DNA from: Longimicrobiales bacterium
GTDB lineage: Bacteria > Gemmatimonadota > Gemmatimonadetes > Longimicrobiales > Gaopeijiaceae
Assembly: GCA_965249775.1 (NCBI GenBank)
Contig: OZ252253.1
Span: forward strand, 3,232,189 to 3,296,188
Direction of reading: 5' to 3'
DNA length: 64,000 bases
Below, piece after piece: positions 3,184 through 40,458 of this stretch; position 1 is the first letter of the stretch; each line of letters opens with the position of its first letter. The notes below the pieces were generated by a model. It was not told where the DNA came from. It worked only from the letters and a program-made list of their open reading frames with translations, and searched no databases. Position numbers and translations under genes: made by a program.

Positions 3184-4797
3184 CTACGCGTCGGCCTCGG
3201 CCGCCAAGGGTGCGGCTCCAGCGTGTCCATCGGCCTCCGCCACCATCGAATTCGTCGGGCCCCGGTTTACCGCCTCCAGGAACGCCTCTCCGTACCGCTC
3301 GAGCTTCAGCGGCCCCACGCCCGAGACGGCCAAGAGCTCGCTCGCCGTGGACGGACGCGCCTCGGCCATGGCACGCAGGGTCTTGTCGCTGAATACGATG
3401 TATGCCGGCACACGCTGCTGGTCCGCAATGGACTTGCGAAGCACTCGCAGGCTCTGAAACAGGGCCTCCCCTTCATCGGAGAGCGGCCCGGCCTCGGCGA
3501 CTCGATCGAACGACTTCGATCGTCGCTGGGCTACCACGGCGGCGGCCATCTTCCCCTCCGCGGCTAGCATCCCCTCAGCCGCCAGATCCTCCGCCTTCAC
3601 ACCCATGCACCAGTCACAGGAACTGCCGCACGGATCGATCTCCTCGCCGAAGTGGCCGAGGATCTTCTTTTGGCGACACCCCCCGTCTTCCACCAAGCGG
3701 AAAAGAGACTTGGCCGCTTCGATCTTGGTCCAGTAGAGATCGGGGTTGTCGATGTCGTTGAGGAACCGCTCCTGGAGCTTCACGTCGGCCCACGAATAGA
3801 AGAGGAAGCAATCGCTATCCAGACCGTCCCTGCCCGCGCGCCCCATCTCCTGATACCAGGACTCCACGTCCTTGGGCATGTCCCGATGGATGACGAAGCG
3901 CACATTCGACTTGTCGATGCCCATGCCGAAGGCGATGGTCGCGACGATCACGTCGGCGTCGTCCCTCGCGAAAGCATTCTGGTTTGCTTCCCGATCCGCG
4001 GCCTCCATGCCGGCGTGGTAGGGCAACGCCCGCACCCCCTGATCACAGAGGAATCCGGCCATCTGATCGACCGCCTTGCGCGAGGCGCAATACACGATGC
4101 CGCTCTGCCCCTGATGCGCCTGGATCAGCCCTGAGATCTCCAAGCGTGTGGGTCCGGTGCCCTTCTTCCTGCAATAGATCTTCAGGTTGGGGCGGAAGAA
4201 CGAGCCCTTGAACCCGGCGGGCTTGCTCATGTCGAGTTGCCGAATGATGTCTCTGGCGACGGCGTTCGTGGCGGTCGCGGTGAGCGCTAACACGGGCACA
4301 CCAGGCAACTCGTCCCGGAGCCGTTGCAGCCGCCGGTAGGACGGCCGAAAGTCGTGCCCCCACTGGCTGATGCAGTGCGCCTCGTCCACCACGAGCAGTG
4401 AGAGCGGCCAATTCCCAGCCTCGCGGCTCAGGCGGCCGTCGAGCCCCTCGGGGGCCAGATAGACGAGCTCGTACTCTCCGCCTCTCAGCGCCTGGAGCCT
4501 CCGCTCTCGCTCGTCCGGCTCCAGCGACGAGTTGATCGCGGCGGCCCGAAAGCCCAGCTCGTTGAGGGCATCGACCTGGTCCTTCATGAGGGAGATCAGC
4601 GGAGACACCACGAGCACGGTCCCGTCCAACATGCGAGCCGGCACTTGAAACGTCAGGGATTTGCCCGCTCCCGTGGGCATGAGCGCGATGCAGTCGCGGC
4701 CCTCGAGCACGGCTTCGATGACCTCTAGCTGGCCGGGGCGAAAGTCCTCGTAGCCGAATACGTCGCGAAGAATGCCGAGTGGTGTGCTGAGGGGCAT
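3184..4797 (-). CDS. recQ: ATP-dependent DNA helicase RecQ
   Basis: Motifs [23 protein letters not shown] (Walker A), [15 protein letters not shown] (DEAH box), and a C-terminal HRDC-like region. The start is placed at the ATG at 4797 (MPLSTPLG), about 10 aa before the conserved N-terminus. A GTG at 4875 is an alternative. Confidence 0.85.
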
Positions 4798-4964
4798 GCC
4801 GAGGGGCGTGCCTGTCGGGTCGGGGGTGATCGGGGGCTCCAAGTCCGGGTGGCAGGTGCGAGCCCCAAGGTACACGAATGCAGGGGGCGAGGAGAGGGGT
4901 GGATGGGGCGCAGGAATCCATCCGAGTCGCGCATGGTCTGCGCAGGCCCCATGTTTCGGGACCC

Positions 4965-7301
4965 ATGGATACCAGAGCGCGCCTCGAGGCGGCCCTCGCC
5001 GACCGATACCGTGTGGACCGAGAAATCGGGTCGGGCGGCATGGCGGTCGTGTATCTCGCCGAAGATCTGAAGCATCGTCGGAAAGTCGCGATCAAAGTAC
5101 TCCGGCCCGAGCTGTCCGCCGCCATGGGCCCAGAGCGGTTCCTGCGCGAGATCGAGATCGCAGCCCAACTCAACCACCCCAACATCTTGGGACTCCACGA
5201 CTCCGGTGAGGCGGACGGTGTCCTCTATTTCGTGATGCCGTTCGTCGAGGGCGAGTCGCTTCGCGATCGGCTCGACCGAGTGGGCCAGCTGTCGCTCGAC
5301 GAGGCAGTGCAGATCACGAGCGAAGTCGCGAGCGCGCTAGGATATGCACATGAGCGCGGCGTCGTGCACCGGGACATCAAGCCCGAGAATATTCTCTTCC
5401 AGGCGGGCCACGCGCTCGTCTGTGACTTCGGCATCGCCAAGGCGGCGAGCGAGGCCCAGGGGCGGCTGACCGACACCGGACTCGCGGTCGGAACCCTCAA
5501 GTATATGAGTCCCGAGCAGGCCGTGGGCGAGGAGGAGATCGATGGGCGAACGGACCTCTACGCACTCGCCTGCGTCCTTCACCAGATGCTCTCGGGCGAG
5601 GTCCCCTTCGTCGGTCCCACGCCCCAGGCCGTGCTAAGCAAGAAGCTGATGGGTGCGGCGACCGATCTTTCCACCGGTCGGCCCGATGTCGCGCCGACCG
5701 TCCGCGATGTCATCTCCCGGGCCCTGGCGACGGCCCCGGAGGATCGCTTCGCCACCGCCGAGACATTCTCCAGCGCGCTTGTGCACGCGACGACCGAGTC
5801 CGCGGTTGCGGACGACGCGCGACGCCGTCGCCGTAACCGGATGTGGAGGACCGCCGCAATGCTCGCCGGCGTGTTGGCCTTCGGCGCCGGGGGCTGGTGG
5901 CTGACCGCGGTTGTGGGCGGACCGCCGATCGCGCGAATTGCATTGCTTCCGCTGACGAACACCCAGCGAGACACGGCGCAGGACTTTTTCGTGCAGGGGG
6001 TCCATGAGGATCTGGTCAGGGAGCTCACCTACGCGGGGATCCGTGTGATCAACTCCAACTCTGTGAGAGGCTATGCGGGGACGGACATGCGCATGCGCGA
6101 CATCGCCGCAGAGCTGAACGTGGATGGCGTCATCGTAAGCTCCGCGACCTTGGAGGGGGACCGCATCGAGGTGGAGTTGTCGCTCGTGGACGGGATCAGT
6201 GAGGAGTCACGTTGGATCGAGCGGTTCCAGGCGGACGTGAGCAACATCGTAACCCTCTACCACGACGTGACGCGGGCGATTGCCGCCGAGATCGAAACGG
6301 AGCTGAGCGGCGAGGCCCTCGCTCGTCTCGCCGAGTCCCTGCCGGTCGACCCACAGGTCTTCGAGGCACTCCTCCAGGCGCGGTTCCACTGGCAGAAGCT
6401 GACCGAAAAGGGGCTGAATACCGCGCTCGATTATTACGAGCTGGCGCTCTCGCGTGACTCCACTTCCGTGGAGGCCTGGATCGGAACCGCACGGGTCTGG
6501 AGTGTGCGCGCCCAGCAGGGGCTCGTGTCCGGAGAGGAGGCTACCCAGCGGGGCGCGGCAGCGATGGCACGTGCCGCGGCCCTGGACCCGACCGCGTCCC
6601 AGGATCCGGCGAGCCTCGCTGCTCAGCATACGTGGTACGAGTGGAACTGGGCCGAGGGAGAGATCGCCTTCCTGAGGGCCATCGAGAAGGATCCTACAGA
6701 CTCGGTGAACCGGGCCTACTACTCGCATCTGCTTTTCTACCTGGGTCGCATTGACGAGGCTCTGGAACAGGTCGAACTGGCGGCCGAGCTGGATCCCTTC
6801 AACTCCCTGGTCCAGGGACTCCACGCGCAGGACCTCATTTTTATGCACCGCTATGAGGCCGCCGAGGCGCTGCTGGTTCGTACGCTGGAGCGGGAGCCAG
6901 GGGCGCCCTACCCGTTGGCGACGCTGCGCACGGCCTACCACCTGATGGAGCGCCACGAAGAGGCGATCCAGGCGTGGAGGGAGTCGTACCGCTCTCTGGG
7001 GGACGCAGGAGCCCTGGACGCGCTCAACCGGGGGTTCGAGGAAAACGGATATCCTACCGCGCTCGAGTCCGTCGCAGAGCTGTTCATCGAGCGCCTGGAG
7101 ACGGGAGACGCAGCCCCGTGGCAAATCGGGACGTTATACACTCGGGCCGGGAGGGCCCCGGAAGCTTTATACTACCTCGAGTTGGCGTTCGAGGAGCTCG
7201 ATCCCAACATGCCTTACCTCAGTGTTGATCCGATCTTCGACTTTCTGCGGGACGAGCCTCGCTTCGAGAGCCTTCTGGACGGACTAGGCCTTCCACGGTA
7301 G
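4965..7301 (+). CDS. Serine/threonine protein kinase with TM segment, periplasmic TolB-N-like domain and C-terminal TPR-like region
   Basis: Kinase subdomains [35 protein letters not shown] segment at [21 protein letters not shown]. The C-terminal half is TPR-like. The start is placed at the ATG at 4965 ([15 protein letters not shown]). Confidence 0.8.
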
Positions 7302-18112: not shown

Positions 18113-20920
18113 ATGGCATCGTTCAGCTCGCGGCTCTTCTTCGGGCTCGTTCTTTTCTTCCCGGGGCTCGTTCTCGTCGGTCCCATTCTGATTGCGAACC
18201 CTCAACGCCTTCATGCGCAGGCAGTCGAGGCCGGCCAGGGGAGCGCCGAACCGGCTCAGGAAGTGACGGTCAACGCTGACTATGACCACGACTTGGCGCC
18301 CAGGGCTCGGGCGATCCTGGTGCAAACCGCAATCGATGTGGACGGGCGTCTCGAGGAGCCGGTGTGGGCACAGGCGCCCCCCATCACGGAGTTCATCCAA
18401 GACGTGCCCGCGGAGGGAGAGCCGGGCACGGAGCGTACCGAGTTCCGTGTGGTCTATGACGATGACGCGATCTATATCGGAGCCATGCTCTACGACCGGT
18501 CCCCGGTCACGACGCGGCTCCAGCGGCGCGATGCGGGGGCTGGCGACTTCGACTTCATCATGGTCAGTCTCGACAGCTACCATGACCATGAGACCGTGTA
18601 CGTGTTTGGGGTGAACCCATCGGGCTCGTTTCACGACGCGGTGTCATCCAGTGGGGGCGGAGGCGGAGGATTCGGGGATAGCTCGTGGGATCCCGTTTGG
18701 GACGTCGCGACGCGGGTTTCCGAGGCGGGGTGGTCGGCTGAGATGCGGATCCCATTCAGTCAGCTCCGCTTCAGCCGAGCCCAGGAGCAGGTGTGGGGCA
18801 TCCAAATCAGGAGAAGCATCCACCGCAACCAGGAGACGGTCACGTTCCCTTTCGTACCGACTCTGGAGAGGGGCGGGGCCTCCCGATTCAGCCACCTGGA
18901 TGGGATCGAGGGGATCGAGCCGGGCCAGAGGCTGGAGCTCCTGCCCTATGTGGCGGCTCGTGGAGAGTATCTTCAGTTGGCGGATCCCTCGGGCATCAAC
19001 TTCTCGAACCCCTATCGGAGTGGGTCCGACTACTTCACCCAAGCTGGGCTGGACCTGAAGTACCGGTTGGCCTCGAACGTCACCCTGGACGCCACGGTGA
19101 ACCCCGATTTCGGCCAGGTGGAGGTGGATCCGTCCGTGATCAACCTGACGGCGTTCGAGACCCGATTCCAAGAGCGTCGCCCGTTCTTCGTGGAGGGGGG
19201 AGACATCTTCCGTGTCGGAGAAGGAGGTCCGGCCGGTAGCACCGGGAGGGCCCCGCAGCTGTTCTACTCCCGGCGGATCGGGCGTTCCCCGTCGGGGTCG
19301 GTCCCGTCCGAGGCGGTGTTTTCCGATGTGGCGTCCGCGACGACCATTCTGGGTGCCGCGAAGGTCACCGGGAGGGTAGCGGACGGTTGGTCGCTTGGGC
19401 TCCTCGAGGCGGTCACCGCTCAGGAGACCGCCAGCTATATGGCGGCCGACCAGGGCGTGGGTGAGGCAGTGGTCGAACCGGCGACCAACTACTTGGCGGG
19501 GAGGCTTCGAAGACAGATCAGGGGTGGCGAGACGCGGTTCGGCGTACTTGGTACGGCGGTAAACAGGGCCCTGAACGGGACGGGCATGCGTGGCCTCCTA
19601 CACTCGTCGGCCTACACCGGAAGCGCGGATTTCGCGCACGAGTGGTCGAACCGAACCTACCGGATCAGTACCATGTTCTCGGGGAGTTACGTAGAGGGAG
19701 CTCCGGCAGCGATCACACGTACACAGCTATCCTCCAGACGGTACTATCAGCGTCTCGACGCGGATCACGTGACCCTGGACCCGACCGCGACCTCTTTGGC
19801 CGGGTACTATGCGATGGTCGACGTTGCGAAGCAGGCCGGAGCGTTTGGCGCGAAGGTCGCGCTGGCGGCTTCCAGCCCGGGCTACGAAGTGAACGACCTC
19901 GGATTCCAGACCGCCTCTGACCGGCTCATCGTCGACACGAACCTCAGCTACAATCAGCCGAACCCTGGTCGGATCCTGAGGTCGTGGGACATCCGTGGGA
20001 GCCCGGACGCCGCGTGGAATTATGCAGGCGACCGGATCTGGACCGAGGTAAACGGCAACTTCAACTTGCAGTTCCTGAACTACTGGAGCCTAGGGGGCAG
20101 ATTCGGCTACAACCCCCAGCACCACGACGATCGCCTGACGCGTGGGGGACCGCTGGCGGGCACGCCGCGTCGCCTCGGGGGGAGTGTGAACGTACGCTCG
20201 GACGGACGGCGCAGGACGACCGGCCGTCTCACGTATCAGTGGGCAGGCGCGAGTGACGATTCCTGGGACCGCACCATAAGCTTCGACCTGACTGTAAATC
20301 CAGGCGAGCACGTGAGGATTCAGCTTGGGCCGTCGTACAACTGGCGTCACGCGTCGGCCCAATACGTTTCCTCGGTGGCGGACCCCCTGGCCACCCAGAC
20401 CTACGGTCGCCGCTACGTCTTCGGCGGACTCGACCAGACCACGGTCTCTCTAGCAACGAGAATGAACGTCACGTTCACGCCCACACTGTCTCTGCAGCTC
20501 TATGTGGAGCCCTTCATATCCACCGGGGACTATCAGGAGCTCAAGGAGTTCGAAGAGCCCGGGGAGTACAGATTCCTGGAGTACGGGACCGACATCGGGA
20601 CGATCTCGCAGGGCGCCGGCGGGACCTACACGATCGATCCCGACGGCGCTGGCCCCGCCCAACAGTTCCAGGTGGCGGATCGGGACTTCAGCTACCGCAG
20701 CCTCATCGGGAACGCGGTCCTACGCTGGGAGTGGCGCCCCGGGTCGACGCTATTCCTCGTGTGGCAGCAGAGCCGGATCAGCTCGCTCAGAGGGGACGGC
20801 GCCGGCGGGACCGATCCGTGGATCGGAGGATTCGACTTCAGCCGCGATGTGGGCGACATGTTTGCCACGCCTGCCGACAACATCTTCGCGATCAAGGTGA
20901 ACTACTGGCTGAATCCCTGA
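18113..20920 (+). CDS. DUF5916 / carbohydrate-binding-family-9-like domain outer-membrane protein
   Basis: 935 aa with a signal peptide. N-terminal CBM9-like region (VDGRLEEPVW...EFRVVYDDDAIYIGA), then a long beta-rich region. Confidence 0.6.
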   Translation: MASFSSRLFFGLVLFFPGLVLVGPILIANPQRLHAQAVEAGQGSAEPAQEVTVNADYDHDLAPRARAILVQTAIDVDGRLEEPVWAQAPPITEFIQDVPAEGEPGTERTEFRVVYDDDAIYIGAMLYDRSPVTTRLQRRDAGAGDFDFIMVSLDSYHDHETVYVFGVNPSGSFHDAVSSSGGGGGGFGDSSWDPVWDVATRVSEAGWSAEMRIPFSQLRFSRAQEQVWGIQIRRSIHRNQETVTFPFVPTLERGGASRFSHLDGIEGIEPGQRLELLPYVAARGEYLQLADPSGINFSNPYRSGSDYFTQAGLDLKYRLASNVTLDATVNPDFGQVEVDPSVINLTAFETRFQERRPFFVEGGDIFRVGEGGPAGSTGRAPQLFYSRRIGRSPSGSVPSEAVFSDVASATTILGAAKVTGRVADGWSLGLLEAVTAQETASYMAADQGVGEAVVEPATNYLAGRLRRQIRGGETRFGVLGTAVNRALNGTGMRGLLHSSAYTGSADFAHEWSNRTYRISTMFSGSYVEGAPAAITRTQLSSRRYYQRLDADHVTLDPTATSLAGYYAMVDVAKQAGAFGAKVALAASSPGYEVNDLGFQTASDRLIVDTNLSYNQPNPGRILRSWDIRGSPDAAWNYAGDRIWTEVNGNFNLQFLNYWSLGGRFGYNPQHHDDRLTRGGPLAGTPRRLGGSVNVRSDGRRRTTGRLTYQWAGASDDSWDRTISFDLTVNPGEHVRIQLGPSYNWRHASAQYVSSVADPLATQTYGRRYVFGGLDQTTVSLATRMNVTFTPTLSLQLYVEPFISTGDYQELKEFEEPGEYRFLEYGTDIGTISQGAGGTYTIDPDGAGPAQQFQVADRDFSYRSLIGNAVLRWEWRPGSTLFLVWQQSRISSLRGDGAGGTDPWIGGFDFSRDVGDMFATPADNIFAIKVNYWLNP

Positions 20921-27228: not shown

Positions 27229-28548
27229 ATGGCACAGTTCTGTGCGTTTGGCCGCTCGTTGTTGTGTGTGGCGGTGCTCGCCAGCCCCGCGTGGGCGCAG
27301 GATAGCGACCGGATTTGGGGTCGGCTCTACACAACGTCCGGCGACGTCCACGAGGGATTCATCCGCTGGGATCGGAACGAGGGCAGCTGGGTCGACGTTC
27401 TGGACGGCTCCAAGAAGATCCCTGATGAGAACTACCAGGCCTGGCTCGCAGCGAAGGGTGCCGACGGGCCGCCGCGCCGTTTTATCGATCTCCAGGGTTT
27501 CCGGATCTCGTGGGAGGAGGCCGACCCCGAGTTCTCACTTACCGCCACCTCCGGGGTCCGATTCGGGCACATCAGCTCTCTTCGCGTCATTGAGGCAGAC
27601 AGTGTTGAGCTGACGTTGCGCTCGGGTGAGCTCGTGGAGCTGGACCGTGGCTCCACGGACCTCGGGAGGTCCAATCGGGGGATCGTGGTGGACGTCCCAG
27701 GCCGGGCCGAAGTCGACTTGGACTGGGGCGATCTCGAGCGGATCGTCTTTTCCGCGGTGCCGGTGGGAGTTCGGGCCCGGGGTCACCGGCTTTACGGAAC
27801 TGCCGAGGACATCCAAGGGAATCGGTACACCGGTTACGTCTCCTGGGATCTGGACGAGATCTTCGAGTCCGACGAGCTGGACGGTGAAGAGATGGAGGGG
27901 GGTAGGAACCGGGAGATTCGGTTTGGGGAGATCGCCTCCATCGTGCGCATAGAAGGGGGGGCTCGGGTCGTGCTCGTCGATGGTGAGGAGTTGGACCTCA
28001 CGGACAACCGGGACGTTGATCGCAGAAATCGAGGAATTCAGATCTCGGATCCGGCGTTGGGCATGGTCGAGGTCGAGTGGAGTGAGCTCGAGATCTTGCG
28101 GTTCCACGAGGCGGACGCGGTCGTTGGCTACGACGCCTTCGATGGAGGGCATGTCCTGGTCGGCACCGTCGTGACACAGTCGGGAGAGGAGATCGACGGA
28201 CTGATTCGCTGGGATGCGGACGAAGCGGGCTCCTGGGAGTTTCTGAACGGTCGCGCGGACGACGTGGTCTTCACCATCGAGTTCGGCATGGTGAGCCGGA
28301 TCGTGCGCGGTGAGGTCTTCGGTGCCACCGTGACACTCCTGGACGGGAGGACCTTCGAGCTGGACAACTACGACGTCGTCTGGGACAACACCGACGATGT
28401 CAACTGGGACAATAGGGGCATCCTCGTCGCCCCGGAGGGCGCGAACAGCAGTGGCGGACCCGACTGGTCTCGTTGGCGTGTGGTCCCGTGGGACGAGTTC
28501 AAGGAGGCCCGCTTTCGCCACGACCAGACTATCGCCGGCGGAAACTAG
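27229..28548 (+). CDS. Secreted protein made of three ~90-aa internal repeats (unknown family)
   Basis: The start is the ATG at 27229 (MAQFCAFGRSLLCVAVLASPAWAQD, a signal peptide). Repeats begin at GRLYTTSGDVHEGFIRWD, GTAEDIQGNRYTGYVSWD and GTVVTQSGEEIDGLIRWD, each with a NRGI.V.....VEW..LE.I.F core. Confidence 0.6.
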   Translation: MAQFCAFGRSLLCVAVLASPAWAQDSDRIWGRLYTTSGDVHEGFIRWDRNEGSWVDVLDGSKKIPDENYQAWLAAKGADGPPRRFIDLQGFRISWEEADPEFSLTATSGVRFGHISSLRVIEADSVELTLRSGELVELDRGSTDLGRSNRGIVVDVPGRAEVDLDWGDLERIVFSAVPVGVRARGHRLYGTAEDIQGNRYTGYVSWDLDEIFESDELDGEEMEGGRNREIRFGEIASIVRIEGGARVVLVDGEELDLTDNRDVDRRNRGIQISDPALGMVEVEWSELEILRFHEADAVVGYDAFDGGHVLVGTVVTQSGEEIDGLIRWDADEAGSWEFLNGRADDVVFTIEFGMVSRIVRGEVFGATVTLLDGRTFELDNYDVVWDNTDDVNWDNRGILVAPEGANSSGGPDWSRWRVVPWDEFKEARFRHDQTIAGGN

Positions 28549-28553
28549 GGCTC

Positions 28554-30899
28554 ATGGGTCACATGCGGACGATCCGGTGGTTCGGAGTCGTGTCTCGTGG
28601 GTGGTTCGGAGTCTTGTGTCTCGGGTTGTTCGGCCTCGGGGCCGAACGGGCGGCCGGGCAGGAAGCGTCGCCTGACTCGGCTGGCCAGGTCGCCCCGGAC
28701 ACATACGTCGATCCGGTGGCACGCACGCTGTTCGAGGCGGCCCAGACGAACTGGCGATCCGTGGACGAATCGATTGTCCGGTACACCGCCCTTATCCAGC
28801 AGCGGATCGCGGCGGCGCTCCGGACCCCGCTCAAGGATCGGATCCTCTACCGGAACGAGACCGCCGTCCGTGCTTTCTGGGATCAGGACTACGACGCGGT
28901 CGTCCAGGTTCTGGGGACGCACTCCCAGTATCCGGGTCGATCGATCGCGGTCCGCGAGGGTGACCTGGACTGGTTGGACGACCTCCCGTTCGACGAACCG
29001 TTCGAGCCGGGCGGCGATCGCCTCCTCTTCGGCCTGGACACCAGCGACGGGGACGACAGCGCCTTCGAAGAGAACGAGGGGTTTTGGGTCGTACACCCGT
29101 TGGCGAACGGATCCGACTCCGTCTACCGCTACGAGAGCGGGGATACCCTTTCGTTGTCCCTCCCGGATGGGCGCGTGCTGCGGACCATCCAATTGGACGT
29201 TCTTCCGCGTGAAGCCGATGTCCACCGTATCAGTGGTACCCTTTGGATCGAGCCCGAGTCCGGCGCGCTCGTACGAGCCGTCTATCGACTGAGTAGGCAG
29301 TTCGATGCAATGCGAGATGTGGCGGAGCTCCAGGAAGAGGAGGAGAGGGGATCATTCAGGTACGTGCCCGGCTTGTTCAAGCCGTGGACGTTCGACCTGA
29401 CGATGGTGGCGGTCGAGTATAGCCTCTGGAACTTCGAGGTCTGGCTCCCTCGGAGCATGCGGATCGAGGGGGAGGTCGCCGCAGGCATCCTCAAGATGCC
29501 GGTATCGATGGACGTTTCCTATCGGATGGAGTCCGTCACCACCCAGTCCGACCTGGCCCGGGAGGGAACGGTGCTGCCGGCCGGGCTCGTGGAACGACAC
29601 TTCGAGACCCGCGCCGAGGCCATGGCCTTCATCGCCCAGCTGTTGTCCGAGCAGGACGGGATCGACTACGAGCAGGCCTCCCGAAGCGAAGAGTTCGCGT
29701 CAGGTCGACAGTCGCTGATGATCGTCCCTCAGGAACGCAGCCTGGTGGACACCAGTCCCCATCTTCCGCCTCCGATCTGGGAAGACGCTGCGGGTTTCCC
29801 GTCCGACGACCAGCTGGAGGACTACTTCAATACTCTTGCCGCTCTTCCGGCCCCGACCATCCAAGGCGTTCCCTGGGAGGCCAACTGGGGTTGGAATCGG
29901 CCTGATCTGCTCCGCTACAACCGGGTGGAGGGACCGGCTTTGGGAGGACGCTTCGATGCCAGCATCGGCGGACCCTACACGTTCGAAGGGATCGGGTACT
30001 TCGGGTTCGCGGATCTCGAGCCGAAAGCACGGGTGAGCATCGAGCGGTCGACCGTTCGGCGCCGACTGCGCGTCGGCGTGTACCGCGAGCTCACTGCCAC
30101 CGATCCCAAGGGCCGGTACCTGGGATTCGGCAACTCGGTGTACGCGCTTCTCTTCGGCCGAGACGAAGGCGAATACTACCGGGCCACGGGCATGGACTTC
30201 ACGTGGCGTCCACCCGTAGGGGCCAGGGAGTCGTTCGAGTTCAGGGCCTACGCAGAGCGTCAGGCGTCGGTCCCGACGGAGTCCAGCTTTGCGCTGTTTC
30301 GCGCCTTCAATGGCAGCTGGGAATTCCGACCCAACATCGACGCCGACGAGGTAGAGGAGTTCGGGGCTGAGCTACGGCTCTCGCCCCGGCGGGGTGGGGA
30401 GCCGTCCCGCGCCCAGTTCGGACTCGACCTGTACGGACAGGCAGCCCGCTGGAGAACTACTGGAGGGAGCGAAGGAACGAACTATGGGCGGGCCAGCGCC
30501 GTGCTGTGGACGGCGATACCCCTGGTCCCGCAACGCTGGCGCTTGGGCCTCGAGGCAGGGGTGGGAACCACCTTTGGCGACGCACCCCTCCAGCGCCAAT
30601 GGTTCCTGGGTGGCGCCCGCACGCTTCGGGGGTACCCTGCTTCGTCGGCCGGGGGATCGTCGGTTGCTCGGGCCCGGGCGGAAGTGGCACGAACCTTCTA
30701 CGACATCGGCTCAGTGAGCTTCTTTGGGGACATCGGTTGGGCGGGCCTTCGGGGCAACTACACCGGGGACGATCTGCTCTACGCAATCGGGGTCGGCGGG
30801 AGCGTGCTCGACGGTCTGTTCCGCATGGACCTGTCCCACGGTCTCAAGGGCCCGCAGAAGCAGTTCCGGGTCGACTTGTACCTCGACGCTCTGCTGTAA
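28554..30899 (+). CDS. Omp85/BamA-TamA-like outer-membrane protein with a large N-terminal periplasmic region
   Basis: Signal peptide (MGHMRTIRWFGVVSRGWFGVLCLGLFGLGA). The C-terminal ~300 aa carry Omp85 barrel hallmarks (LGGARTLRGY, FGDIGWAG, alternating beta pattern). Starts 6 nt after the upstream gene. Confidence 0.55.
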   Translation: MGHMRTIRWFGVVSRGWFGVLCLGLFGLGAERAAGQEASPDSAGQVAPDTYVDPVARTLFEAAQTNWRSVDESIVRYTALIQQRIAAALRTPLKDRILYRNETAVRAFWDQDYDAVVQVLGTHSQYPGRSIAVREGDLDWLDDLPFDEPFEPGGDRLLFGLDTSDGDDSAFEENEGFWVVHPLANGSDSVYRYESGDTLSLSLPDGRVLRTIQLDVLPREADVHRISGTLWIEPESGALVRAVYRLSRQFDAMRDVAELQEEEERGSFRYVPGLFKPWTFDLTMVAVEYSLWNFEVWLPRSMRIEGEVAAGILKMPVSMDVSYRMESVTTQSDLAREGTVLPAGLVERHFETRAEAMAFIAQLLSEQDGIDYEQASRSEEFASGRQSLMIVPQERSLVDTSPHLPPPIWEDAAGFPSDDQLEDYFNTLAALPAPTIQGVPWEANWGWNRPDLLRYNRVEGPALGGRFDASIGGPYTFEGIGYFGFADLEPKARVSIERSTVRRRLRVGVYRELTATDPKGRYLGFGNSVYALLFGRDEGEYYRATGMDFTWRPPVGARESFEFRAYAERQASVPTESSFALFRAFNGSWEFRPNIDADEVEEFGAELRLSPRRGGEPSRAQFGLDLYGQAARWRTTGGSEGTNYGRASAVLWTAIPLVPQRWRLGLEAGVGTTFGDAPLQRQWFLGGARTLRGYPASSAGGSSVARARAEVARTFYDIGSVSFFGDIGWAGLRGNYTGDDLLYAIGVGGSVLDGLFRMDLSHGLKGPQKQFRVDLYLDALL

Positions 30900-30958: not shown

Positions 30959-31025
30959 CGTTTGACTCCCCTCCCGCCTGATTGTACCATATCACTATAA
31001 CACTAGTACATTACAACACTGGTGC
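30959..31025 (+). promoter_or_regulatory. AT-rich promoter/operator with an imperfect ~21-bp direct repeat (GTACcATatCACTATAACACT / GTACATTACAACACT) around an ACTAGT palindrome
   Basis: A local AT-rich island in a 66%-GC context, immediately upstream of the GntR gene. A TTGACT -35-like hexamer sits at 30962. Confidence 0.4.
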
Positions 31026-31053
31026 CATCGCAGCCCATCGAGGACCGGGACCC

Positions 31054-31428
31054 GTGGAATTCTCCATCGACACCAAGAGCGGCGTCCCCTTCTACCGGCA
31101 AATCATCGAGCAGGTGAAGTACGGCATCTCGGGGGGGCTACTCTCTCCCGGGGACCGGCTTCCCACGGTCCGGCAGCTCGCCGCCGACCTGTCGGTCAAC
31201 CCGAACACCGTCATCCGCGCCTATCGGGAGATGGAGCTCGGAGATGTGGTCGATACGCAACAGGGGTCCGGGACCTACGTGGCCAACCACATGCCGGAGA
31301 TCGGCGAGCTCGAGAAGCGTCGGAAGCTGGACCAGGTGCTCACCGAGTTCCTGGCTCGCGCGCACGGGTACGGGTTCACCCTGGTCGAGGTCCTCGACGG
31401 TTTACGGGAACGCAAGGAGCAGTCATGA
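31054..31428 (+). CDS. GntR-family (YhcF-like, short) transcriptional regulator
   Basis: Winged-HTH motif GDRLPTVRQLAADLSVNPNTVIRAYREMELGDVV. The start is placed at the GTG at 31054 (VEFSIDTKSGVPFYRQI) with GAGGA upstream. A TTG at 30982 is in frame but unlikely. Confidence 0.7.
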   Translation: MEFSIDTKSGVPFYRQIIEQVKYGISGGLLSPGDRLPTVRQLAADLSVNPNTVIRAYREMELGDVVDTQQGSGTYVANHMPEIGELEKRRKLDQVLTEFLARAHGYGFTLVEVLDGLRERKEQS

Positions 31429-32576
31429 ACGGCATAGAATCCAAACGCACAGAGCGCGGGAAGTCGCGAACGGGGATCTCTTTCGAGAGGTTCTCCACGT
31501 CGAGCCGCGCCGACTTCCGCTTTGCGCCGCTCAACTTCCTGCTGCTGGTGGGGTTCTACGTGGTGGGCCTGACCGTCCACATCAACGTCTACGAATTCTC
31601 CGCCGACGCGGTATACCTCACGCTGGGCGCGGCTCTGGTACTCTCTTTCCTGCTTCGTTTTACCCAGGTGTGGGAGGCCGTCGTCGTCCTGGGCACGGCC
31701 ACGTGTCTTGGGATGTACATCGAGTGGAGTCCTGGCTCCGGGGTCTTGGAGCTGCGTTCCGACAGCACGGTCTTGCTATTGACGACCGTCGTGGCGGTGC
31801 TCGTGTCTCCCTCGGTTCAGATGGCCTTCCAGTGGGAGCGAGCAGTGGTGCTGCGCCTCGGCAAGTTCCGCGGCCTGCGCGAGTCGGGCCTGTTCGTGAT
31901 CCTCCCGGTGATCGACAAGGTGGCGCAGTTCGTGGACCAGCGGATCCGCGTCACCGACTTCAGCGCCGAGACGACCCTCACGAACGACACGGTCCCGGTG
32001 AGCGTGGACGCCATAGCCCTCTGGATGGTGTGGGACGCGGAGAAATCCATCCTCGAGGTCGAGCACTTCAACGACGCCGTGATCCTCTCCGCCCAGACGG
32101 CGCTCCGAAACGCGATCGGAAAGAACGACCTGGGCCAGCTCCTGTCGGAGCGGGACCGCCTGGGGAGCGAGATCCAGAAGGTGCTCGACGCGAAGACCAA
32201 CCGCTGGGGCATCACCATAGAATCCGTGGAGATCCGTGACATCATCATTCCCCAGGCCCTCGAAGACGCAATGTCCCGACAGGCCCAAGCCGAGCGGGAG
32301 CGCCAGAGCCGCATCATCCTCGGCACGGCGGAGACGGAGATCGCCGAGAAGTTCGCCGAGGCCTCCCAGCACTACGTGGGTAACGAGGTGGCTCTGCACC
32401 TCAGGGCCATGAACATGGTCTACGAGGGGCTTCGGCAAAAAGGCTCGATGGTGATCGTGCCGTCCTCGGCGGTGGAGACGATGGGGTTGGGGGCGCTGGG
32501 TGGGCTGACGTCGTTCGGGCGTAATGTCGTGCCGCAGGAGGAGGAAGCGGCGGCGTTGGAGGCAGAACCTGAATAG
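31425..32576 (+). CDS. SPFH/band-7 (stomatin/prohibitin-like) membrane protein with extra N-terminal TM domain
   Basis: ATGA overlap with the GntR stop. SPFH core VILPVIDKV...RVTDFSAETTLTNDTVPVSVDAIALWMV...AQAERE, ending in a coiled-coil tail. Confidence 0.8.
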   Translation: MNGIESKRTERGKSRTGISFERFSTSSRADFRFAPLNFLLLVGFYVVGLTVHINVYEFSADAVYLTLGAALVLSFLLRFTQVWEAVVVLGTATCLGMYIEWSPGSGVLELRSDSTVLLLTTVVAVLVSPSVQMAFQWERAVVLRLGKFRGLRESGLFVILPVIDKVAQFVDQRIRVTDFSAETTLTNDTVPVSVDAIALWMVWDAEKSILEVEHFNDAVILSAQTALRNAIGKNDLGQLLSERDRLGSEIQKVLDAKTNRWGITIESVEIRDIIIPQALEDAMSRQAQAERERQSRIILGTAETEIAEKFAEASQHYVGNEVALHLRAMNMVYEGLRQKGSMVIVPSSAVETMGLGALGGLTSFGRNVVPQEEEAAALEAEPE

Positions 32577-33244: not shown

Positions 33245-34927
33245 ATGAAAAGTAGGTCCCTGCTCGTAGCTCTCTTCGTCAGCCTTTTGCCCGGCCCGTT
33301 GGCGGGTCAGGATGCCGTAGCGTTGCAACAGGCCTGCGACGCTGGCGACATGCTGAGCTGCAACACCCTCGGACTCATGTACGGGGCCGGGAAAGATGTC
33401 ACCTGGGATGGCGGGCGTGCCGCTAGCCTCTTTCAGCGAGCGTGTGACGGGGGATTGATGCTGGGTTGCACCCACCTAGGGGCTCTGTATCAGAATGGCG
33501 TCGGCGTCACTCAGGACCTTACCAGCGCGGTCTTCCTGTACGAGCGAGCCTGCGACGGCGGCGATATGATGGGCTGCGCCACCCTCGGGGTCAGCTATGA
33601 GCGGGGCGAAGGTGTCACACAGGACGCTGTTCGCGCCGTGAGCCTCTACGAGCGAGCCTGCGGCGGCCGCGAGATGCTGGGCTGCACCAACCTGGGGAGT
33701 ATGTATAGGACGGGCAGGGGCGTCACCCAGGATCTCGGTGCCGCGGCCAGCCTCTATTGGCTGGCTTGCGACGGTGGAGTGATGCCGAGCTGCCTCAACC
33801 TCGCCGTCAGTTATGAGCGTGGCGATGGCGTCGCTCAGGACGTCAGCATCGCCGTGATCCTCTACCAGCGAGCCTGTGAGTCCGGAGTGACCTTGGCCTG
33901 CGACCGGATTGGGGTCACGTACGAGCCGCCTGAGGCAGATGTCGCTTCGGCTGACGGTTTTGCCAGGGCCGGCTGGGTCGTGGATACGGAGACCAGAGAC
34001 CCGCTCGACGAGGCGATCGTGGACATACCGGAGCTCGGGATTCGGGTGATCACCGACGCGACAGGTCGTGTCGAGTTCCCAAACCTACCGACCGGGCGGC
34101 ATCGCATAAGGGTAGAGCGGGTCAATTATCAGGCCATGGAGGGTGACCTGGACGTTCCGGAGGACCGAGAATTCCTGCTTGCCTTGGACCTGACCCTCAT
34201 AGGCGACCCGGACGCTCCGGGGCGGATCGTCGGTCGGGTCTTGGAGGGCGGCAGAGAATATGGGGTTTCGTCTGTGGACATCACCGTACTGACCTCTACA
34301 CCGGTCAACACATTCAGTGATCCACAAGGACGGTTCAGTCTCATGGACGTGGAGCCTGGGTTGGTGGAGGTCCGCTTCGGGCGGCTGGGCTACGCCCCCC
34401 GCAGGGCCACAGTGATCGTGCAACCTGATAGAACGGTGGAAATCGCCGCCTCGATGTCCGCCCGCCCCATCGAGCTCGAGCCGATCGCGGTGGTGGTCCG
34501 CCCCCGCAATCTCGAGCAGAACGGATTCTACCGGAGGGCCCTTACTAGTGGGGGCAGCCAGCTCACTCGGAAGGACCTCGACGCCATCGACCCGATAGAG
34601 GTAGGCCACGTTTTTCGGCGGCTTCCGGGCGTGAGGGTGGAAGGCGGGCAGATCATGGGGCGGAGGACCGGGTTCGGAGACATATGTCGACTTCGAATTT
34701 TCTTGGACGGGGTGCCGGTGGGCGGCCTTATTCCCGGCGTCCCAGTAGAGGACCCCGCCGACCCCAACAACGGGGACATCGACCCCCCCCCAGTTCAGGT
34801 CGGCTGGGATTTCAACTCCATCCCCCCCGATTTCCTGGAGGCGATAGAGGTCTACCAGGGACTGAACACGCCCATCCAGTACGGTCCGGCTTGCGGCGTG
34901 GTACTCTTCTGGTCGAGGGGTAACTGA
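33245..34927 (+). CDS. Secreted Sel1/Hcp-like Cys-paired repeat + carboxypeptidase-regulatory-like (x2) + TonB-dependent-receptor plug domain protein, with no beta-barrel
   Basis: Signal peptide. Six ACDGGxMxGC...GxGVxQD Sel1-like repeats. Two CarbopepD_reg-like beta-sandwiches (GRVEFPNLPTGRHRIRVERVNYQ; GRIVGRVLEGG...GRFSLMDVEPG). A plug-like end ...GFGDICRLRIFLDGVP...IEVYQGLNTPIQYGPACGVVLFWSR, then a stop. Confidence 0.7.
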   Translation: MKSRSLLVALFVSLLPGPLAGQDAVALQQACDAGDMLSCNTLGLMYGAGKDVTWDGGRAASLFQRACDGGLMLGCTHLGALYQNGVGVTQDLTSAVFLYERACDGGDMMGCATLGVSYERGEGVTQDAVRAVSLYERACGGREMLGCTNLGSMYRTGRGVTQDLGAAASLYWLACDGGVMPSCLNLAVSYERGDGVAQDVSIAVILYQRACESGVTLACDRIGVTYEPPEADVASADGFARAGWVVDTETRDPLDEAIVDIPELGIRVITDATGRVEFPNLPTGRHRIRVERVNYQAMEGDLDVPEDREFLLALDLTLIGDPDAPGRIVGRVLEGGREYGVSSVDITVLTSTPVNTFSDPQGRFSLMDVEPGLVEVRFGRLGYAPRRATVIVQPDRTVEIAASMSARPIELEPIAVVVRPRNLEQNGFYRRALTSGGSQLTRKDLDAIDPIEVGHVFRRLPGVRVEGGQIMGRRTGFGDICRLRIFLDGVPVGGLIPGVPVEDPADPNNGDIDPPPVQVGWDFNSIPPDFLEAIEVYQGLNTPIQYGPACGVVLFWSRGN

Positions 34928-34935
34928 GCCGTGAG

Positions 34936-36546
34936 ATGAAAAATAAGTCCCTGCTCGTAGCTCTCTTCATCGGCCTGTTGCCTGGTCCGTTGGCCGGTCA
35001 GGATGCCGTAGCGTTGAACCAGCAGGCCTGCGACGCCGGCGATTTGATGAGCTGCAACGTGCTCGGGCTCATGTACGGGGCCGGGGCTGACGTCCCTCAG
35101 GATGGGGCGCGTGCCGCCAGCCTCTTCCAGCGAGCGTGTGACGGGGGACTGATGCTGGGTTGCACCCACCTCGGGCTCCTTTATCAGAATGGCGCAGGCG
35201 TCACTCGGGACCTTGCCAACGCGGTTTTCCTCTACGAGCGAGCCTGCGACGGCGGCGATATGCTGGGCTGCGCCAGCCTCGGGGTCAGCTACGAGCTGGG
35301 CGACGGCGTCACACAGGACCCTGCCCGCGCCGTGAGCCTCTATGAGCGGGCCTGCGGCGGCGGCGAGATGATGGGCTGCACCAACCTCGGGAGCATGTAT
35401 AGGACGGGCAGAGGCGTCACCCAGGATCTCGGTGCCGCGACCAGCCTCTACTGGGTGGCTTGTGACGGCGGAGTGATGCCGAGCTGCTTGAACCTCGCGG
35501 TCAGTTATGAGCGTGGCGAAGGCGTCACTCAGGATGTCGCCATCGCCGTGGTCCTCTACCAGCGAGCCTGTGAGTCCGGAGTGACCTTGGCCTGCGACCG
35601 AATCGGGGTCACGTATGAGCCGCCTGAAGCAGATGTCGCTTCGGCAGACGGATTTGGCAGGGCCGGCTGGGTCGTGGATACCGAGACCAGAGACCCGCTC
35701 GACGAGGCGATCGTGGATGTGCCAGAGCTCGGGATTCGGGTGATCACCGACGCGACAGGTCGTGTCGAGTTTCCAGACCTCCCGGAGGGGCGACATCGCG
35801 TAAGGGTAGAGCGGGTCAATTATCAGGCCATGGAGGGTGACCTGGACGTTCCGGAGGACCGAGAATTCCTGCTTGCTTTGGACCGGACCGTCATAGGCGA
35901 CCCGGACGCTCCGGGGCGGATCGTCGGTCGGGTCTTGGAGGGCGGCAGGGAATATGGGGTTTCGTCTGTGGACATCACCGTACTGACCTCTACACCGGTC
36001 AACGCACTCAGTGATCCACAAGGACGGTTCAGTCTCACGGACGTGGAGCCTGGATTGGTGGAGGTTCGCTTCGAGCGGCTGGGCTACGCCGCCCGTAGAG
36101 CCACGGTGATCGTACAACCTGATAGAACGGTGGAAATCGCCGCCTCGATGTCCGCCCGCCCCATCGAGCTCGAGCCGATCGCGGTGGTGGTCCGCCCCCG
36201 CAATCTCGAGCAGAACGGATTCTACCAGAGGGCCCTTGTCTCTGGGGGCAGCCGGCTCACTCGGGATGACCTCGACGACATCCACCCGATCTTCATATCC
36301 GACGTTTTTCGGCGCCTTCCGGGCGTGAGGGTGGAAGACGGGCAGGTCATTGGGCGGTCGACCGGGTTCGGGGACATATGTCAACTTCGAATTTTCTTGG
36401 ACGGCCTGCCGATGGAGGGGTGGGATTTCGATTCGATCCCCCCGGAGTTCCTAGAGGCGATGGAGGTGTACCAAGGATTGGCCACTCCCATCCAGTACGG
36501 TCCGGCTTGTGGCGTGGTACTCTTCTGGTCGAGGACGGGTGGCTGA
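34936..36546 (+). CDS. Tandem paralog of 33245-34927 (same Sel1 + CarbopepD_reg + plug architecture)
   Basis: About 85-90% identical at protein level. It lacks the 24-aa Pro-rich insertion of the first copy. Starts 8 nt after the first gene. Confidence 0.7.
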   Translation: MKNKSLLVALFIGLLPGPLAGQDAVALNQQACDAGDLMSCNVLGLMYGAGADVPQDGARAASLFQRACDGGLMLGCTHLGLLYQNGAGVTRDLANAVFLYERACDGGDMLGCASLGVSYELGDGVTQDPARAVSLYERACGGGEMMGCTNLGSMYRTGRGVTQDLGAATSLYWVACDGGVMPSCLNLAVSYERGEGVTQDVAIAVVLYQRACESGVTLACDRIGVTYEPPEADVASADGFGRAGWVVDTETRDPLDEAIVDVPELGIRVITDATGRVEFPDLPEGRHRVRVERVNYQAMEGDLDVPEDREFLLALDRTVIGDPDAPGRIVGRVLEGGREYGVSSVDITVLTSTPVNALSDPQGRFSLTDVEPGLVEVRFERLGYAARRATVIVQPDRTVEIAASMSARPIELEPIAVVVRPRNLEQNGFYQRALVSGGSRLTRDDLDDIHPIFISDVFRRLPGVRVEDGQVIGRSTGFGDICQLRIFLDGLPMEGWDFDSIPPEFLEAMEVYQGLATPIQYGPACGVVLFWSRTGG

Positions 36547-38211: not shown

Positions 38212-40458
38212 CTAGTACGCCAGCGGATCCGGCCGGATCTGGAACTTGACGATCTTGCTCGTTGTGCCCCTGCCGCCCTCCAGATGCCAGGGAATGTTCG
38301 TGCCGAAGTCGGCCCAGACGCCCCGTCCCTTCCATCCGGCATCGGGATCGTCGATGCGACCGTCCAGTCCCCGGGAGTAGAAGCCCAAGGGGTAGGGGAC
38401 CCGCATCCGGACCCACTCACCCGAATCGGGATTGAGAGCCAGGAGAGCATCGGAGGTCGTACCGTTGGCGATGGGTACGTTCTCTCCCAGCCCCAAGGTG
38501 TTGAACTGGTCCACCCAGTTGTAGTAGTGAAAATCCGCACTCCTCGAGTTGTCTACGTTCTTCATTTGCGGTCCCGGAGCGGGATAGAGGGTCCACCCCT
38601 CGGGGCAGTGCTGGCCCGTGGCCTCAGGCCCGTTCAGCACGGTGCACTTGCTCCGGTCGAAGCTGGCCAGGTGGCTGCTTCCCGAGAGCGCCGTCCAGAC
38701 GATCCCGTCCCGGGTGATGTCGATCCCGCGGGGTGAGTATCCCCAGTCCTCTTCGGGCACATCAGGATTCTCGAAGGGCGGCTCGTACACTTCCGCCGCA
38801 CAGGTCTCCGGCGGGTTGTCTCCCAGCTCCAGTCGAATGAGCCGGCCTGGCACGCCGCCCGTCCGGGCGACCCAGATGGCGTCGTCCACCGGGTTCACGA
38901 TGACCCCGTAGGCGAAGCCCGTGATCCGGGTGTCCCGACTCGGATCACTGGGACCACGGCCCTGGTTCCAGGGCCTCGTGATCCGTCCGTCACCGTTGGT
39001 GTCGATGACCGTGGGGCACCAGCCTTGGGCCTCCTCGGCCCGGAGCGCGAGGCGCGCGGGCGCCTGGTCCCGGATCTGATTCACCAAGGGGCCCTGAGGG
39101 CCGTCCAGGAGTGGGGTGGTTCTCACCCAGCCGATGACCTGAGTGTCACCGCTGAAGTAGAGGGTATTGTCCGGGTCCTCTCCGAACTGGAGGTGGTGGG
39201 TCCCGAAGCACGTGTCGACGAGCGTGAACTCTTCCGTGTCGGGGTGGTAGACCGAAGCCTGCCGCCCACTGCCGTTGAGGGGGAAGTACTGGGCAAAGGC
39301 ATTGGACGAGCCCTCCCGGCACCAATCGGGGTTGTTCCCGTTGTTGCGGATTCTCGAGGTGAGCCAGACGCGTCCCTCCTGGTCCATCATGGGATTGTGG
39401 ACGTTGGCCTGGCCCTCGAGGATGATCTCCTCGCCCCAGAAGACCGACGGCTCGAAGCCGGGGTTGGCGGGGAAGTAGGGTTGGGTCTCGGGATCCCGCA
39501 CGGGCACCCGCAGCTCCCGGGCCTCGTTGGTCCCGGGCTCCATGATCAGCAATCGGTCGTCGGACATGGAGACGCCGTATACGGGGCCGTCGGCGTTGAC
39601 CTCGGGGGCGCGCTTGTCCGAAGCGACCTCGTCGTGCACGTAGGACGTGCCGTCACCCCAGTCCCAGAGGGTGAGTACCACGTTGCGCTCCTCTCCGCGG
39701 GGCCGGGGTGGCTGGGGCGGCACTTCGCCGGCCGTGATCCGGTCCGTCCAATCTGCGAACTGCTGCACGGCCCGCTCCCGCCCCATTCCGGCCAGGGCGC
39801 CGTTCATCCGGGCACCGCGCTGCCCGAAGGTCACGCGGGTACTCCACGCTTCTTCTGCAGTGGAGAAGCGGCGGTCGAGGTGGGCGATCTCGCGCGTGAT
39901 CTGGTTCCCGAGCTGGTGACAGAGTTGGCAGCCTTGCTTGAGGTTGTCGATCCACTGCGCCTGTGACCGGACGCCAGGGTTGATGCCGTTCCCGGAGGGC
40001 CCGGTACCCGGGAACTCGTCCGCGTGAGGGACCTCCAGGAGGGAGTACCAGTAACTGGCCGGATAGACCGCCGCTGCCTCCTGGGGCGTTTCCGGATACG
40101 CCGGCGTCAGGACGAGATCGTCGCCCGGCTCGGCCATCACGGGCTCGGAGTCGGCCAGCCCGTATCCCCGAACCCAGACGTCGTAGTTCGCGTCGGGCAA
40201 TTCGGGCAAGACGAAGCGGCCTTCGTCATCGGTGACGACGATCTTGGCGAAGCCTGTGCCGAGGTCATCGGACTCCGCGATGACCCATACGCCAGCCTCG
40301 GGGCCGTTTTCACCCTGGACCACGCCCATAACGGCGTCGTGCATTGCTGGCGGAGCACAGGCGGAGGAGGCGATCGCCAATGCCAAGGACGCGGCAAGGG
40401 GGGCCCTATGGCCCATTAAGTGCTCGTACACCTTTCTAGGCCGCATCTGCTCTGGCAT
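38212..40458 (-). CDS. Lipoprotein with N-terminal carboxypeptidase-regulatory-like domain and a CXXCH c-type-heme-binding motif
   Basis: Start at the ATG at 40458 with GGAGGT 7 nt upstream. Signal/lipobox ...LALAIASSAC. CarbopepD_reg-like VVQGENGPEAGVWVIAESDDLGTGFAKIVVTDDEGRFVLPELP. Heme motif NLKQGCQLCHQLGN. Confidence 0.65.
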   Translation of the reverse strand: MPEQMRPRKVYEHLMGHRAPLAASLALAIASSACAPPAMHDAVMGVVQGENGPEAGVWVIAESDDLGTGFAKIVVTDDEGRFVLPELPDANYDVWVRGYGLADSEPVMAEPGDDLVLTPAYPETPQEAAAVYPASYWYSLLEVPHADEFPGTGPSGNGINPGVRSQAQWIDNLKQGCQLCHQLGNQITREIAHLDRRFSTAEEAWSTRVTFGQRGARMNGALAGMGRERAVQQFADWTDRITAGEVPPQPPRPRGEERNVVLTLWDWGDGTSYVHDEVASDKRAPEVNADGPVYGVSMSDDRLLIMEPGTNEARELRVPVRDPETQPYFPANPGFEPSVFWGEEIILEGQANVHNPMMDQEGRVWLTSRIRNNGNNPDWCREGSSNAFAQYFPLNGSGRQASVYHPDTEEFTLVDTCFGTHHLQFGEDPDNTLYFSGDTQVIGWVRTTPLLDGPQGPLVNQIRDQAPARLALRAEEAQGWCPTVIDTNGDGRITRPWNQGRGPSDPSRDTRITGFAYGVIVNPVDDAIWVARTGGVPGRLIRLELGDNPPETCAAEVYEPPFENPDVPEEDWGYSPRGIDITRDGIVWTALSGSSHLASFDRSKCTVLNGPEATGQHCPEGWTLYPAPGPQMKNVDNSRSADFHYYNWVDQFNTLGLGENVPIANGTTSDALLALNPDSGEWVRMRVPYPLGFYSRGLDGRIDDPDAGWKGRGVWADFGTNIPWHLEGGRGTTSKIVKFQIRPDPLAY

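Follow-up and report, generated by a model that had tools for sequence, protein, structure and literature searches.

What becomes of the front end of a TonB-dependent transporter when no barrel follows it? The question is raised by two adjacent genes, here called A and B, in a 64,000-nucleotide stretch of a Longimicrobiales genome (contig OZ252253.1 of assembly GCA_965249775.1, positions 3,232,189 to 3,296,188), which we refer to as the window. In SusC/RagA- and Oar-type transporters an N-terminal extension, a TonB box and a plug are followed by a 22-strand barrel, whereas the products of A and B have no barrel. Our analysis showed that they belong to a very large family of the Gemmatimonadota that combines a constant C-terminal module with variable N-termini. 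Going by sequence and predicted structure, we propose, at a probability of about 40%, that A and B encode free-standing, TonB-engaging soluble periplasmic proteins in which the front end of a SusC/Oar-type transporter is fused to a Sel1 solenoid.

Architecture of the gene pair

The open reading frame (ORF) listing places A at 33245-34927 (+; 560 residues) and B at 34936-36546 (+; 536 residues), on the same strand and exactly where the original prediction had put them. The proteins are tandem paralogues, as had been claimed, with 84% identity by BLASTP, and they share one architecture: a signal peptide, six Sel1 repeats, two beta-sandwiches, a TonB-box-like linker and a plug, at which the reading frame stops. 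B differs in missing a 26-residue insertion, and the Pfam domain sets of the two are identical. With 8 nucleotides between them, the genes are, judging by this spacing, probably co-transcribed; a scan for promoters and terminators gave none above shuffle expectation. A spacer of 150 nucleotides separates B from an alpha/beta-hydrolase gene, the unrelated esterase that had been named as the next gene.

The plug lies at 36202-36543 in B (residues 423-536) and at 34508-34924 in A, and is marked by LExNGFYxR, by PGV and LDG boxes, by EVYQG and by the terminal strand CGVVLFWSR. It scores 27.3 and 30.8 bits in the two proteins against the Pfam Plug model PF07715, above the gathering cut-off of 23.9 bits, and covers profile positions 10-100 of 107. 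Searches with hidden Markov models (HMMs) and by fold both recover it, and in the AlphaFold model of B, which has a mean predicted local distance difference test score (pLDDT) of 88.8, it forms a compact alpha/beta domain (residues 422-533). Residues 28-133 of the transporter BtuB align to the family profile, ending on GGVVNIITTR, the counterpart of the family's terminal strand and the strand with which the BtuB hatch closes; because the alignment reaches this strand, the plug of A and B is complete. The barrel domain TonB_dep_Rec (PF00593) had no Pfam or NCBIfam match in either protein, and both stop 2-3 residues past the last plug strand, ending in ...WSRGN and ...WSRTGG with no aromatic terminal residue.

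Ahead of the plug, a signal peptide (34936-34998 in B, residues 1-21, ending ...PLAG and followed by QD; 33245-33307 in A) was read from the sequence. It is followed by a Sel1/Hcp-like solenoid at 35005-35619 in B and 33311-33925 in A, for which Pfam Sel1 gave E-values of about 4e-32 and 4e-33 (the latter for B), in five stretches each. The solenoid holds six C-x7-C pairs with a 36-residue period (Cys32/40 to Cys212/220 in B), its AlphaFold model is helical throughout (residues 24-226, pLDDT >95), and its Foldseek matches are c5321, HcpC and HcpB, so that the cysteine-paired Hcp-like repeats reported earlier are well founded. HcpB, HcpC and c5321/EsiB of E. coli, together with LpnE and LceB of Legionella, are likewise exported proteins built of 36-residue helix-turn-helix repeats with C-x7-C, and the Sel1 region of A and B is 33% identical to HcpC (Foldseek E 9e-15). 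One disulfide-forming C-x7-C pair in every repeat marks out the Hcp proteins. They are stand-alone solenoids, whereas here the solenoid makes up only the N-terminal third and is missing in most family members. Sel1 modules 40-47% identical to these are also fused to Ser/Thr protein kinases and to caspase-like C14 peptidases (P0054, P0061, P0068, P0070 and others), one of the kinase fusions being from the myxobacterium Minicystis rosea. By sequence, this cysteine-paired solenoid looks like a binding module that moves between proteins.

Both carboxypeptidase-regulatory-like domains of the original prediction were recovered in the Pfam scan of each protein. The first, CarbopepD_reg_2 at about residues 243-309, corresponds to a beta-sandwich at 35665-35883 in B (residues 244-316; 240-315 in the AlphaFold model) and 33971-34189 in A. 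The second, CarboxypepD_reg (PF13620) at about residues 328-405, corresponds to a beta-sandwich at 35914-36150 in B (residues 327-405, also in the model) and 34220-34456 in A, and is the counterpart of the SusC/Oar N-terminal extension. Two linkers of B were modelled with low confidence, residues 227-237 and 409-419, the second being the TonB-box-like linker RPIELEPIAVVVRP (36157-36198 in B, residues 408-421; 34463-34504 in A). The predicted template modelling score of 0.47 means that the relative arrangement of the domains is not confident.

Each protein has 14 cysteines, all of them paired: the six pairs of the solenoid and one pair in the plug. The plug pair is formed by Cys482 (36379-36381) and Cys525 (36508-36510) in B and by Cys481 (34685-34687) and Cys550 (34892-34894) in A, and was recognised by its invariance in alignments.

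A family with a constant C-terminal end

To place the pair among its relatives, one search covered 5.8 billion proteins and a second, with HMMER, 1.84 billion cluster representatives. Among the 5.8 billion, about 90 proteins of 300-680 residues share the Pfam set of A and B, and all of them terminate 2-6 residues past a strand of the form CG(V/I)(V/I)L(I/L/F)WT(R/K). A profile of the C-terminal module added a tier of proteins of 130-275 residues, with one beta-sandwich and a plug and none with a barrel domain; PF00593 was found in none of the family homologues listed by the word-indexed searches. HMMER returned 4,910 proteins at E<=1e-10 and 10,465 at E<=1e-3, the match extends to the C-terminus for almost every one of the top 150, and 271 of the 319 near-complete modules end no more than 2 residues from the last profile position. 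This end point is shared by homologues down to about 25% identity and by many independent assemblies, including multi-megabase contigs. As it is conserved across hundreds of homologues, the absence of a barrel, which the original prediction had read from the two genes, is not a product of mis-assembly.

The history of the pair is that of two maintained copies. Aligned by BLASTP, A and B differ by one gap of 26 residues, a Pro-rich insertion (GGLIPGVPVEDPADPNNGDIDPPPVQ, 34721-34798) present in copy A only; the original prediction of a near-identical duplication holds in its identity, but the indel is 26 rather than 24 residues long. It lies in the plug loop after the LDG box, which is variable in length across the family, and it was gained by copy A. 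Over aligned codons the genes are 90.3% identical in nucleotides and 87.8% in amino acids. Set beside the single-copy orthologues P0001 and P0002, A and B show 87.6% identity to each other and 88-90% to these orthologues, and each copy carries 23 lineage-specific changes. The duplication is thus, on sequence, lineage-specific and not very recent (synonymous divergence, dS, about 0.2), and the "recent" expansion proposed earlier can be kept only in a relative sense. The ratio of nonsynonymous to synonymous divergence (dN/dS) is 0.36 overall, 0.24-0.27 in the Sel1 repeats and beta-sandwiches and 0.67 in the plug; purifying selection acts on the paralogues, and each copy has been retained.

These results bear on the suspicion that A and B are truncated transporter genes that have lost their barrel through mis-assembly, frameshift or decay into pseudogenes. 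Such genes do exist, as at 3405-5156 in locus L027 of our homologue set, but here the end point is common to about 270 of 319 homologues from independent assemblies, single-copy orthologues stand between the same flanking genes, dN/dS is well below one, the stop contexts of A and B are independent, and just 150 nucleotides lie between B and the next gene. The conserved end point and the orthologous single-copy loci exclude truncation, frameshift and mis-assembly, and we give an artefact of any kind next to no credence.

Protein lengths in the family peak at about 250 residues (one beta-sandwich) and about 340 residues (two), with a tail to 1,126 residues in which three to five or more CarboxypepD_reg domains follow one another in a chain. 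Sel1 repeats are an optional addition, missing from most members and different in number among the relatives of A and B, which represent a Sel1-bearing branch. Genomes carry several paralogues, often in tandem (L012, L023, L025, L026, L027). In L025 (7186-8771, +), for example, two tandem short-form genes of 255 and 256 residues lie between a MacB-type ATP-binding cassette transporter gene and an extracytoplasmic function sigma-factor gene, the latter followed by two small unannotated ORFs. In L027 (5799-7952, +), a 717-residue protein has the cysteine-pair plug module (…C…FLNG…CGALLLWSW…) in its interior, with one more CarboxypepD_reg domain after it, which shows that the module is not always C-terminal. 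All named members are from Gemmatimonadota (Longimicrobiales, Gemmatimonadales and Longimicrobium) except for one Acidobacteria protein and one locus labelled Gammaproteobacteria. The latter, L013 (JAHEKL010000078.1), is a contig of a metagenome-assembled genome and probably reflects a binning error or a rare transfer.

Of 255 complete members, 214 start with a signal-peptide-like hydrophobic stretch, and a loose lipobox pattern matches about 20% of the 214. Across the family the final residue is mainly R, G, A or K. In beta-barrel proteins of the outer membrane it is usually aromatic and forms part of the insertion signal, and with their non-aromatic ends the family proteins do not look membrane-inserted. 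The cysteines, paired throughout, point to an oxidising compartment. A soluble periplasmic protein is the most economical reading of these sequence features.

The family had been called undescribed, and so far as we searched this holds. In public databases members bear generic names ("carboxypeptidase regulatory-like domain-containing protein" and "TonB-dependent receptor plug domain-containing protein") or wrong ones. For A and B, every NCBIfam model stays below its cut-off and the Pfam matches are to generic domain models only, so neither library models this family. A fold search of the Protein Data Bank (PDB) gave no solved structure of it, and literature searches on natural barrel-less or plug-only proteins gave no relevant paper. 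The domains are known singly; what is new is a phylum-wide transporter front end without the barrel.

The TonB-box-like motif and possible functions of the module

Three features had escaped the original prediction: that Sel1 repeats are optional within a very large family, the TonB-box-like motif, and the invariant cysteine pair of the plug, the latter two being the most informative. The family signature reads PIEL(E/D)PIxVxVRSxxLERxGFYxR ... C ... (Y/F)(L/V)DG ... EVYxG ... P ... CGVVLxWT(R/K), at or near the C-terminus, and A and B keep every signature residue and score 143 bits (A) to 166 bits against the module HMM. Its opening stretch, from P-I-E-L to G-F-Y-x-R, is among the most conserved parts of about 320 diverse members (V15 86%, L22 90%, G26 92%, R30 96%; within the TonB-box-like linker V 86%, L 81% and I 70%). 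The linker is nevertheless predicted to be disordered, with pLDDT <50 at residues 409-419 of B, and a combination of this kind is characteristic of motifs that fold upon binding. Counted back from the alignment to BtuB, the EPIAVVV of this linker presumably falls at the position of the BtuB TonB box, DTLVVTA.

The CarboxypepD_reg domain (residues 329-405) directly precedes the motif (residues 408-421), as in the SusC/Oar subtype. Full-length transporters of the same phylum carry LQLDEVIVTG (a SusC-like protein of L001) and LSLPGVQVTA (L024) directly after CarboxypepD_reg, motifs that by sequence are equal in type and place to the linker of A and B. In Bacteroides SusC (Bt1763) the TonB box, 82-DEVVVTG-88, follows the N-terminal extension (Pfam 13715), is flexible and is needed for function; the extension is itself essential and its role unexplained (PMC7782687).

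The plug, for its part, has moved well away from ordinary ones. A genuine SusC-like plug reaches 21 bits and BtuB 23 bits against the family HMM, which sets the family well apart. Unlike SusC, RagA and Oar, members have a family-specific GFYxR helix, CGVVLxWTRR in place of GGVINIITK, additional N-terminal modules (Sel1 repeats or more beta-sandwiches) and an invariant cysteine pair. The pair is unvarying in two family alignments, its two cysteines are kept in 93% and 96%, respectively, of some 330 members, and exactly two cysteines occur in 302 of 319 plug modules; in B it would correspond to a Cys482-Cys525 disulfide, going by the alignments and the model. The last-strand Trp is kept in 96% of members.

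Such divergence, and the new signatures of GFYxR, cysteine pair and Trp, would suit a plug fold that has been repurposed, independently of TonB, to serve periplasmic or surface proteins as an all-purpose C-terminal domain for binding or oligomerisation. The "TonB box" would then be a mere conserved linker, and function would reside in the Sel1 repeats and beta-sandwiches, as a scaffold, in adhesion or, like other Sel1 proteins, in the regulation of envelope proteins. Chains of up to five or more beta-sandwiches do resemble the stalks of surface proteins, and similar Sel1 modules are elsewhere joined to kinases and caspase-like peptidases. We nonetheless consider this explanation somewhat less likely than TonB engagement. 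The motif is one of the best-conserved stretches and yet predicted to be disordered, a combination that fits a binding motif better than a passive linker, and it matches the TonB boxes of transporters from the same phylum.

A second barrel-less lineage in the Gemmatimonadota also speaks against it. These proteins of about 236 residues (e.g. L001 1771-2484, +; relatives P0369-P0488) number at least 154, some on multi-megabase contigs, and consist of a signal peptide, one CarboxypepD_reg domain, an aVLDEiLV TonB-box motif and a plug with canonical boxes (LRG / LDGVR / RGPaa..G.I..T), followed by the stop. They share the phylum, and at times even the contig, with the cysteine-pair family but are mostly free of cysteine, lack Sel1 repeats and go undetected by the cysteine-pair HMM. 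The lineage is independent of the cysteine-pair family, and it too has retained TonB-box motif and plug boxes. Its members are often misnamed "TonB-dependent receptor", "SusC" or "Fe transport receptor" in the sources. Public annotations frequently give such names to the free-standing plug proteins in general, and transporter counts for Gemmatimonadota genomes are inflated as a result.

According to the TonB-engaging reading that we favour, the products of A and B would be exported by Sec into the periplasm as soluble proteins, and their N-terminal-extension beta-sandwich, TonB box and plug would present what a SusC/Oar-type transporter shows to the periplasm and to TonB. Every solved plug structure found by fold search in the PDB has the plug inside a barrel. 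The isolated FepA plug is described as unfolded (Usher et al. 2001, as cited in PMC11658791), and because a classical plug is unfolded on its own, the family-specific disulfide plausibly stabilises the plug outside a barrel. The variable N-terminus may serve as a specificity module, in which the Sel1 repeats, as a scaffold that binds proteins or cell wall, would hold a partner. The protein might then act as an adaptor that couples the Sel1-bound partner to the TonB/ExbBD motor, or as a competitor that vies with transporters for TonB.

TolB, a soluble protein of the periplasm, has an N-terminal strand to which the motor protein TolA binds. Any likeness to A and B would be one of logic only, a soluble protein offering a short disordered strand to a proton-motive-force-driven protein of the TonB/TolA type, as there is no sequence or fold relationship.

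The original prediction had speculated that a free plug could bind TonB, and our results support this indirectly. Several points weigh against TonB engagement. The conservation of EPIxVxV could reflect packing or another partner, TonB binding is deduced from a motif, and the disulfide and the folding of a free plug are read from a predicted model. Neither tonB nor exbBD was found linked to the pair among the Pfam-scanned ORFs of the window, although ordinary transporters lack this linkage too. Finally, an Arg or Lys past the last strand is kept in 86% of members, presumably where transporters have the "RP box" that touches their barrel, and could mean that a barrel partner still exists.

Even so, thousands of selected free-standing plug proteins that retain a TonB-box motif suggest that the module can work outside a transporter. 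More broadly, these proteins might be natural non-transporter substrates of TonB, in which the motor pulls on, relocates or releases what the Sel1 solenoid or beta-sandwich chain at the N-terminus is bound to, or exchangeable plugs for shared barrels, a suggestion we hold only tentatively and with less than even confidence. If true, either version would extend TonB function past one-piece outer-membrane transporters on a phylum-wide scale. The family also offers a handle on three open problems: the role of the SusC-type N-terminal extension (PMC7782687), the recognition of clients by TonB, and the question whether TonB drives anything besides import.

Genomic neighbourhood and candidate partners

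Does a barrel exist elsewhere into which such a plug could insert? An exported plug might enter, from the periplasm, a plug-less barrel encoded at another locus, while the beta-sandwiches and Sel1 repeats stay periplasmic, and the original prediction had speculated on an orphan barrel of this kind. A full plug and the TonB-box-like motif are kept, as is the basic residue after the last strand, and Braun and colleagues in 2003 reportedly reconstituted activity from co-expressed FhuA cork and barrel. Our search for partners lent the idea no support. No plug-less barrel was found, and no barrel-type neighbour recurs across the 28 loci compared. A disulfide would be needless within a barrel, members such as the 717-residue protein of L027 have an extra domain past the plug, and several paralogues per genome would require many orphan barrels. 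We regard this explanation as improbable.

One candidate was rejected on inspection. The gene at 3405-5156 (-) in L027, annotated as barrel-only, starts mid-plug (…TMRGFQ…TLDGIPLGD…GGVIAYRS…) and has no TonB box; because half of a plug, the second, is still encoded, this is probably the gene of an ordinary transporter, 5'-truncated or decaying, and not a plug-less barrel.

The original prediction had asked whether relatives share architecture and context. The architecture proved widespread, but the neighbourhood is not conserved: in an all-against-all ORF clustering of the 28 loci, no neighbour is common to more than about five, barring antisense shadow ORFs within the gene. DUF5916, glyoxalase, esterase and HupE genes recur because the window, L002, L022 and L028 are syntenic, and this synteny accounts for the co-occurrence of DUF5916. 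The orthologous locus in L028 runs glyoxalase, single gene, esterase and a 199-residue gene, and that in L002 runs SPFH, single gene, esterase and a 748-residue gene. Among the 30 Pfam-scanned ORFs of the window there was no tonB, exbBD or TonB_dep_Rec barrel gene, and a PadR and TonB_C pair lies 3 kb from a family gene in L023 only.

Some neighbours are of interest in their own right. Large proteins with CBM9_1 and DUF5916 lie 1-12 kb from family genes (window 18113-20920, +; L022 17772-20618; L026 4472-6736); DUF5916 is possibly a large barrel, and given the synteny of the window and L022 its proximity need not reflect a functional link. The window also encodes, four genes ahead of A and B, an 808-residue protein (28473-30899, +) with a signal-peptide-like hydrophobic N-terminus, a sub-threshold DUF5686 match and a C-terminus that by eye resembles the end of an Omp85/surface-antigen-type barrel; it is not conserved beside family genes elsewhere. 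Downstream, at 38212-40458 (-), a 748-residue protein has an N-terminal CarboxypepD_reg-like domain (24 bits, sub-threshold) and a large unannotated remainder, and is conserved beside the locus in L002 with 80% identity. At 30982-32576 (+), a GntR-family regulator gene overlaps the start of an SPFH/Band 7 gene by 4 nucleotides (31425-31428), a sign of a small operon that directly precedes the glyoxalase gene and the pair; an SPFH gene also lies upstream of the single-copy orthologue in L002.

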